Below, piece by piece: positions 28,754-29,587 of a stretch of 64,000 nt of DNA. A model generated the notes under the pieces. That model made no database searches. It was not told the origin of the DNA and was given only the letters and a program-made list of their open reading frames with translations. Every line of letters begins with the position of its first letter. Position 1 is the first letter of the stretch. The position numbers and the translations under genes were made by a program. The stretch lies in the NCBI RefSeq assembly GCF_055900595.2, contig NZ_CM148325.1. The stretch is one strand, 5' to 3'.

Positions 28754-29404
28754 TCAATGAGACATCATTTCCTCGACCACTTCTTCGCTACTCAACTGAT
28801 ATGGATAATACGTTGGCCAGTTTTCCATTTCATTTAATAAAGATTGCTGTGAATCATTACCCATAAAAATGTGAAAATGAGATGATTTTCGTGGTGCAAT
28901 TATATGATCGCTAAATTGTATATATTTAGGGGCTTTGCTTTCAGGATCTTTACATTCGAATAAGTAACGAACGCCTTTCTTGCCTGATTTATAGGTGAGT
29001 ATTTTGTATCCATCGTAATCATATTTACAGGATGTTGTTTCATTATTTCTATGGAATTCAACAATGCCGTCCTCAATGCCAATCATCTCGATATCTGTCG
29101 CATAACCTTTGTGATAATAATCTTTAATTTCAGCAAATGTTTTAGTTTTATCTGCATCCGCTTTCTTCTGAAAGACGGGGTCAAGTTTGCCACTTTGCAG
29201 TAAAGGATAAACGGATTGCCAGACTCCATCCCAGTCACTCAGCTTTCGGTTTTGTACATTGGCATCATCAAAAACACCATTAGCAGCTTTTTGTTCGACC
29301 TCTGTTAAGGGTTTGCCGTGTGAGTGATGACCATGCGAAAAGGCAGGAGCGCTAACCATAAAGACACCTAAAGCAACAGCCAGTTTGTGAAGACGAATCG
29401 CCAA
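28754..29404 (-). CDS. zinT: Periplasmic zinc/cadmium-binding protein ZinT
   Basis: Track ORF begins at ATG 29425, but a TTG at 29404 preceded by GGAGG gives a classic signal peptide (M)[22 protein letters not shown] followed by the His-rich HGHHSHGK; length then 216 aa. Confidence 0.85.
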
Positions 29405-29437
29405 AACAGTTTCCTCCAGAGTCATTGTATATGATGT

Positions 29438-29463
29438 GTAATGTTATATTGTAACATATAACA
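29438..29463. promoter_or_regulatory. Zur-box-like palindrome upstream of zinT
   Basis: gtaatgttatattgtaacatataaca contains the palindrome ATGTTATATTGTAACAT, resembling the Zur operator; about 35 bp upstream of the zinT start. Confidence 0.4.
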
Positions 29464-29587
29464 AAATGCAACAACTCTTAGGAGACAAGAGAATAGTTCT
29501 CTCAGGTATGATTATCTATCTTATTGAAATAACATAAATTATGTTGGTAATTTGAGGTTGATGACAAACGAAACATAACCTGATGTG

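Follow-up and report, generated by a model that had tools for sequence, protein, structure and literature searches.

Start codon, upstream ATG polymorphism and Zur operator of the Escherichia coli zinT gene

The zinT locus and its surroundings

The DNA considered here is a stretch of 64,000 nucleotides (hereafter the window) that derives from an E. coli chromosome. Of 5426 complete E. coli genomes, 5417 match a 1-kb query centred near the zinT start, and strain 2017C-4173W12 is 100% identical to the window over the same query. The zinT gene (yodA) resides on the minus strand with msrPQ and yodB as neighbours, in the order msrP, msrQ, zinT, yodB. We focus on the 5′ control region of zinT, whose product is a periplasmic zinc-recruiting lipocalin-like protein. 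The predicted protein scores 432 bits against the NCBIfam equivalog NF007639 (cutoff 300), with residues 4-216 aligned to profile positions 2-214, and 285 bits against the Pfam model PF09223 ZinT (cutoff 27). It also matches the 216-aa chain of PDB entry 1s7d over residues 1-216 with E = 1e-147. The mature N-terminus is His-rich (HGHHSHG), and the protein is near-identical to the structurally solved E. coli ZinT. The features that define its reading frame are as follows.

28754..29404, minus strand: zinT coding sequence, 216 codons plus stop, with a TTG start, as in the RefSeq CDS of the identical strain
29336..29404, minus strand: codons of a Sec-type signal peptide of 23 residues, cleaved before HGHHSHG (charge and hydrophobicity computed)
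29402..29404, minus strand: TTG initiation codon, invariant across all E. coli alleles aligned
29413..29417, minus strand: Shine-Dalgarno (SD) sequence GGAGG, 8 nt before the TTG, with the spacer stretch AAACTGTT
29423..29425, minus strand: polymorphic in-frame ATG (MTLEETV extension), most likely not a start

Several observations concern the DNA around this region. The msrQ-zinT intergenic region carries a GC-rich, REP-like palindromic element at 29597-29662. This element gives the best match in an Rfam scan (REP-derived naRNA4, 35.8 bits versus a gathering score of 59.5) and lies outside the control region; the scan returned sub-threshold matches only, none of them within the zinT promoter or start region. 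The 181 bp located 5′ of zinT (29480-29560, msrQ-zinT intergenic) are unusually variable in E. coli, with 1501 genomes only 80-90% identical and with indels of approximately 18 nt in some alleles. Unlike this intergenic region, the block made up of a -35-like TTGCAT hexamer, Zur box, SD and TTG is nearly invariant. In strain MFDS1022581, an IS2 element interrupts the DNA about 90 nt 5′ of the zinT start (near window position 29485), just before the -35-like hexamer. There it replaces the normal intergenic sequence and leaves the core promoter and Zur box intact. Downstream, yodB (27881-28441, minus strand) is a further nearby gene for which the longest open reading frame and the annotated start disagree: the former begins at TTG 28441 (186 aa), and RefSeq begins at ATG 28411 (176 aa, MNRFSK...).

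The TTG start codon and the polymorphic upstream ATG

On the minus strand the region reads ...TTGCAT-TTTGTTATA-TGTTACAATATAACA-TTACACATCATATACA-ATG-ACT-CTG-GAG-GAA-ACT-GTT-TTG-GCG-ATT..., and the zinT frame is closed upstream by an in-frame TAA at 29446. A reading made from the sequence only had proposed that translation begins at TTG 29404, with GGAGG located 8 nt upstream. Both direct inspection of the sequence and a script place the GGAGG as described. The proposed start is also the one used by RefSeq/PGAP, which in the 100%-identical strain annotates exactly 29404..28754 (WP_001007789.1, 216 aa). The same 651-nt CDS is annotated by RefSeq in 10 further E. coli alleles that were picked to span the identity range of the zinT promoter region, three of which carry the upstream ATG. 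Moreover, the 20 nt preceding the TTG pair with the anti-SD sequence with an energy of -9.3 kcal/mol, which is in the top 1.4% of 20-mers from the window. The alignment of E. coli alleles reveals no variation in the GGAGG, in its 8-nt spacing, or in the TTG itself.

Strain K-12 provides an informative natural variant. Between the in-frame stop codon and the zinT TTG, K-12 has no ATG, GTG or TTG, and yet this strain makes exported ZinT, as evident from PDB chains that either carry 216-aa numbering or begin at residue 24. Because K-12 produces the protein while having no other canonical start codon, initiation at the TTG is indirectly supported. This start is already the standard view, given that RefSeq, PDB and UniProt numbering agree.

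The TTG start was also expected to yield a canonical signal peptide and a protein of 216 amino acids. Indeed, the resulting signal peptide comprises 23 residues, with the n-region MAIRLHK (net charge +2), a hydrophobic h-region of 13 residues, and a c-region reading A-F-S before HG. The mature chains of PDB entries 1oee and 5aq6 align from query residue 24 onward, and top-down proteomics of E. coli has detected ZinT cleaved at its documented signal-peptide site (PMC9338294). Initiation at the TTG and at the upstream ATG would generate the identical mature N-terminus, HGHHSHG. Since the signal peptide is removed and the mature protein is the same in both cases, proteomics of the mature protein cannot separate the two starts. 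Proteomic evidence for an MTLEETV N-terminus, which had been named as the observation that would refute the TTG start, is for this reason weak as a refutation as it was worded. We found no start-site profiling or nascent N-terminomics dataset that covers zinT. Specifically, the supplements of the TRAINSPOTTER nascent N-terminome of E. coli list no ZinT entry, which is to be expected for a gene that is repressed by Zur in rich or standard medium.

The first in-frame ATG, as had been claimed, extends the protein by MTLEETV. The open reading frame from ATG 29425 (29425..28754) encodes 223 amino acids, MTLEETV followed by L AIRLHK..., with no stop before the TTG. In strains that carry this allele, such as that represented by the window and O157:H7, translation could in principle begin wholly or substantially at the ATG. 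The 223-aa precursor made in this way would bear a signal peptide of 30 residues, and would be either the true product or an N-terminal proteoform expressed alongside the shorter one. As an initiation codon, ATG is inherently stronger than TTG, the leader preceding the ATG is AU-rich, and the probability of being unpaired is similar for the two codons (0.47 for ATG versus 0.53 for TTG). However, the 20 nt before the ATG have no SD complementarity (+2.7 kcal/mol), and the codon resides only about 6-12 nt from the predicted 5′ end of the transcript. These two properties make it at most a minor start. The extension furthermore brings two glutamates into the n-region of the signal peptide, which then spans 14 residues with a net charge of 0. 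The NCBIfam ZinT equivalog, whose alignment begins at residue 4 of the 216-aa form, does not match the first 10 residues of the 223-aa form.

The distribution of the ATG argues further against its use. The codon at this position is TTA in K-12 and several other alleles and ATA in another E. coli allele. Overall, 8 of 11 further E. coli alleles, among them K-12, have TTA or ATA here. Escherichia outgroups carry ATA (Escherichia sp. MOD1) or ACA (E. albertii). An exact 41-mer that contains the ATG is carried by at most 2058 of 5416 genomes (at most ~38%), such that K-12 and most other E. coli genomes do without it. Among the matches listed for this 41-mer, 5 of which are fully identical, 10 of 10 have no annotated CDS that overlaps it, and RefSeq never starts zinT at the ATG in the alleles checked. 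Variation at this codon within E. coli and in the outgroups, set against the fixed GGAGG, spacer and TTG, indicates that the ATG is a derived single-base change. It is a recent ATA to ATG polymorphism present in part of the species.

Thus, we consider it improbable that the ATG directs most or even a substantial share of zinT translation. That TTG is the only start used in the ATG-carrying strains is a point that we infer, and our residual doubt, which is slight, concerns only minor co-initiation at the derived codon. Such initiation could add a minor proteoform with a long signal peptide and altered export in the approximately one third of E. coli that carry the ATG, including O157:H7, although this is the less likely possibility.

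The start of zinT had been raised mainly as a caution regarding annotation. For RefSeq, where the TTG is already in use, this caution is unnecessary. Elsewhere it is warranted: the 223-aa MTLEETV form occurs on at least 1000 public contigs, where NCBI and UniRef sources name it ZinT, and a 90%-identity cluster with 5196 members is represented by a 223-aa protein. The many public records of the longer form might be taken to favour the ATG, but these entries are predictions by gene callers rather than experimental results. The 223-aa ZinT is a start-site mis-call that has spread outside RefSeq.

One additional proposal, that mRNA structure sequesters the SD, was considered and dropped. The minimum free energy fold does pair the SD with codons ~18-22, but its stability does not exceed that of shuffled sequences (z = +0.89 for the window and +0.37 for K-12).

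The Zur box and a predicted overlapping promoter

Immediately upstream of the start region is an inverted repeat that had been likened to an operator for the zinc-responsive repressor Zur. The features of this segment are as follows.

29437..29456, no strand assigned: Zur box, a 20-mer for two Zur dimers, gene-strand TGTTACAATATAACATTACA, matching the pattern TGWNAYRWTATAWYRTNWCA
29441..29457, no strand assigned: imperfect palindrome of 17 nt, plus-strand ATGTTATATTGTAACAT, containing the 7-1-7 Zur core at 29442-29456
29466..29471, minus strand: predicted -35 hexamer TTGCAT, invariant in E. coli alleles, with highly polymorphic DNA upstream
29443..29448, minus strand: predicted -10 hexamer TATAAC, separated from TTGCAT by a 17-nt spacer and located within the Zur box
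29441-29446, minus strand: alternative -10 hexamer TAACAT, read from the sequence

An inverted-repeat search finds that the arms of the 17-nt palindrome are perfect over 6 nt (ATGTTA/TAACAT) and 5 nt apart. By itself, a palindrome with 6-bp arms in AT-rich DNA is unremarkable, whereas the match to the Zur consensus is far above chance. Gilston et al. (2014) derived from a Zur-DNA structure the two-dimer recognition pattern TGWNAYRWTATAWYRTNWCA (PMC4219657). A motif scan with this pattern matches 29437-29456 with 0 mismatches, which is the sole match in the 64-kb window, where 0.08 matches are expected by chance at 2 or fewer mismatches. The 7-1-7 core TGTTAYANTATAACA likewise matches 29442-29456 with 0 mismatches (0.02 expected at 1 or fewer mismatches), and the older form of this core, TGTTAYA-N-TATAACA, matches at the same position. 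Regarding the extent of the site, the identification as a Zur operator stands, but the exact 17-mer does not. The box is the 20-mer at 29437-29456, located within a footprint of approximately 30 bp. The 17-mer and the 7-1-7 core share a common centre, and the structure-based 20-mer lies 2.5 bp off it as a result of the overlapping half-sites used by the two Zur dimers.

Experimental evidence for this operator has been published (PMC4219657). The zinT operator yields a footprint of ~30 bp and a cooperative two-dimer gel shift with a Kd-app of 0.053e-18 M^2, and zinT is repressed 984-fold in vivo when a zur deletion is compared with the wild type. These binding data were obtained with K-12 DNA, whose 20-mer is identical to that of the window; one flanking position near the box differs, in that the window carries TGTTATAT and K-12 carries TGCTATAT. 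The palindrome is the core of this published operator, and in this respect it was already known.

A sceptic might view the palindrome as a chance inverted repeat in an AT-rich region, given its perfect arms of only 6 bp, or as a site for another member of the Fur family such as Fur itself, since Fur and Zur boxes are related (PMC4219657). This view is very improbable when set against the published gel shifts, footprints and zur effect. The pattern that is matched without mismatch includes the Zur-specific central TATA. Furthermore, E. coli alleles differ within the box only at the N position of the pattern, while divergence among them reaches 20% in the DNA further upstream than the -35-like hexamer, and the box is retained upstream of zinT across genera. 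The reading as a Zur operator is accordingly retained here.

A longer palindrome also can be drawn at this site. Positions 29442-29463 form a perfect palindrome with 8-bp arms, TGTTATAT/ATATAACA, which puts a TGTTATA heptad, the third, immediately 5′ of the Zur box. As a candidate for an extended operator this palindrome was rejected, because its left arm is specific to this allele and reads TGCTATAT (as in K-12), TGCCATAT or TTTCATAT in other alleles. The extended half-site is therefore probably not required.

Transcription of zinT most likely begins from a sigma-70 promoter composed of TTGCAT and TATAAC, with a predicted start near 29431-29437. Both hexamers, the transcript start and the length of the 5′ UTR are predictions from sequence and conservation. 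A simple sigma-70 promoter scan did not call this promoter, since the scan requires a T at the last -10 position and TATAAC ends in C; the assignment consequently draws on conservation only. We found no experimental transcription start site for the Zur-dependent zinT promoter, and a full-text search of zinT and yodA promoter papers returned no mapping study. Only a weak start site, located 429 nt upstream and inside msrQ, is listed by Kim (2012), and the Cappable-seq supplementary files list nothing at the zinT promoter coordinates.

Together, these features suggest a simple scheme for zinT control. When zinc is sufficient, two Zn-loaded Zur dimers would occupy the operator that is centred on 29437-29456, thereby occluding the promoter; this mode of action is proposed because the predicted -10 hexamer resides inside the Zur box, in its right half, and the published repression amounts to approximately 1000-fold. 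During zinc starvation, Zur would leave the DNA and zinT would be transcribed. The GGAGG at 29417-29413 would then position ribosomes for initiation at TTG 29404, and the 23-residue Sec signal peptide of the resulting 216-aa precursor would be cut before HGHHSHG. The coordinates, annotation, polymorphism, SD complementarity, cross-genus conservation and Zur-box match on which this scheme draws are observations, whereas for Zur binding and repression and for the signal-peptide cleavage site we rely on the literature. We are highly confident in the scheme as a whole, which joins a start at TTG 29404, a Sec signal peptide, and a Zur operator that overlies a predicted sigma-70 promoter.

Conservation across genera and comparison with known systems

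A scan of one genome per species recovered 80 zinT loci. Among these, 28 loci from ~13 genera encode an E. coli-type N-terminus (type A), which gives 29 sequences when the window is included. The genera are Escherichia, Salmonella, Atlantibacter, Serratia, Phytobacter, Enterobacter, Superficieibacter, Yokenella, Citrobacter, Silvania, Huaxiibacter, Lelliottia and Pseudocitrobacter. The homologous start codon is TTG in 26 of the 29 type-A sequences and GTG in the remaining 3, and it is never ATG (0/29). A GAGG block at positions -12 to -9 is conserved across these genera. In-frame stop codons located 12-18 nt upstream of the start are frequent among the type-A loci, including those of Salmonella and two of the three from Atlantibacter. 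The first base of the start codon carries 1.52 bits of information, versus a mean of 0.64 bits at the third positions of codons 2-12. The Zur box resides 34-46 nt upstream of the zinT start in most loci across genera, and in most genera a TTGnnn hexamer precedes the Zur core by 7-9 nt when the alignment is anchored on the core.

Other zinT genes depart from this arrangement. An MKK-type N-terminus with an ATG start is present in Buttiauxella, Cedecea, Pantoea, Erwinia, Yersinia, Providencia, Proteus and Morganella. Some loci also differ in their upstream DNA: in those of Providencia alcalifaciens, Morganella morganii and Proteus (n = 9 loci), no Zur box can be recognised within 200 nt of the start, the best matches having 6-7 mismatches, and in Morganella psychrotolerans (n = 2 loci) the box is located 168 nt upstream of zinT. 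These loci with absent or distant boxes suggest a different operon arrangement or a different form of regulation.

Two further observations concern the sequence around type-A starts. The three nucleotides preceding the start codon (window 29405-29407) are conserved, with A or G at -3 and T at both -2 and -1, which yields (A/G)TT-TTG at 1.0-1.6 bits. This conserved (A/G)TT may reflect a preferred initiation context for a weak start codon. In Pseudocitrobacter vendiensis, a similar start ambiguity is created by an in-frame ATG two codons upstream of the TTG. This ATG follows a GAGGG by only 1-2 nt, and the TTG keeps the conserved 8-nt spacing.

For zinT, the reference annotation and a detailed structural and thermodynamic study already covered the TTG start, the signal peptide and the Zur operator. 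Our findings therefore have little biological consequence, and their practical value is in annotation hygiene. Gene callers that favour the longest open reading frame, or an ATG, will report a 223-aa ZinT in strains with the derived ATG. Polymorphism within a species combined with conservation across genera offers a cheap way to settle such questions about start sites.

A mildly interesting by-product of this comparison is the strict use of a non-ATG start across many genera, which raises the possibility of selection for weak initiation. All 29 type-A sequences retain TTG or GTG even though a single substitution would yield ATG and synonymous sites nearby are largely randomised, a pattern that hints at a start held by selection rather than passively inherited. 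If true, the weak start codon would serve as a translational throttle on a secreted protein, offsetting the ability of zinT transcription to rise ~1000-fold on Zur release. We offer this idea only tentatively, and consider it doubtful on balance.

The closest known counterpart of the locus is zinT of E. coli K-12 (yodA, b1973; UniProt P76344; PDB 1oee and 1s7d), which is the same gene, with the same neighbours and the same length of 216 aa. K-12 shares with the window the TTG, the GGAGG with its 8-nt spacing, the signal peptide and the 20-nt Zur box. The K-12 protein differs from that of the window by few substitutions, for example H6Y, M16I and K54T (K-12 relative to the window). At the DNA level, the ATG of the window corresponds to TTA in K-12, and its TGTTATAT just upstream of the box to TGCTATAT.

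Similarly, Salmonella, Serratia, Enterobacter, Atlantibacter and other Enterobacterales carry zinT genes with a TTG or GTG start that is preceded by a GAGG-type SD at about 8 nt and by a Zur box at 37-45 nt. These genes have no upstream in-frame ATG, and many have an in-frame stop in that position instead.

Among Zur operators more broadly, those of znuABC, ykgM (L31p) and pliG share with zinT both the pattern RNNNYxxxRNNNY / TGWNAYRWTATAWYRTNWCA, which is bound as a dimer of dimers, and the 7-1-7 core TGTTATA-N-TATAACA (PMC4219657). The zinT core shows one departure from the Panina consensus, TGTTACA for TGTTATA. In affinity and repression, zinT exceeds znuC and pliG by approximately two orders of magnitude (PMC4219657).
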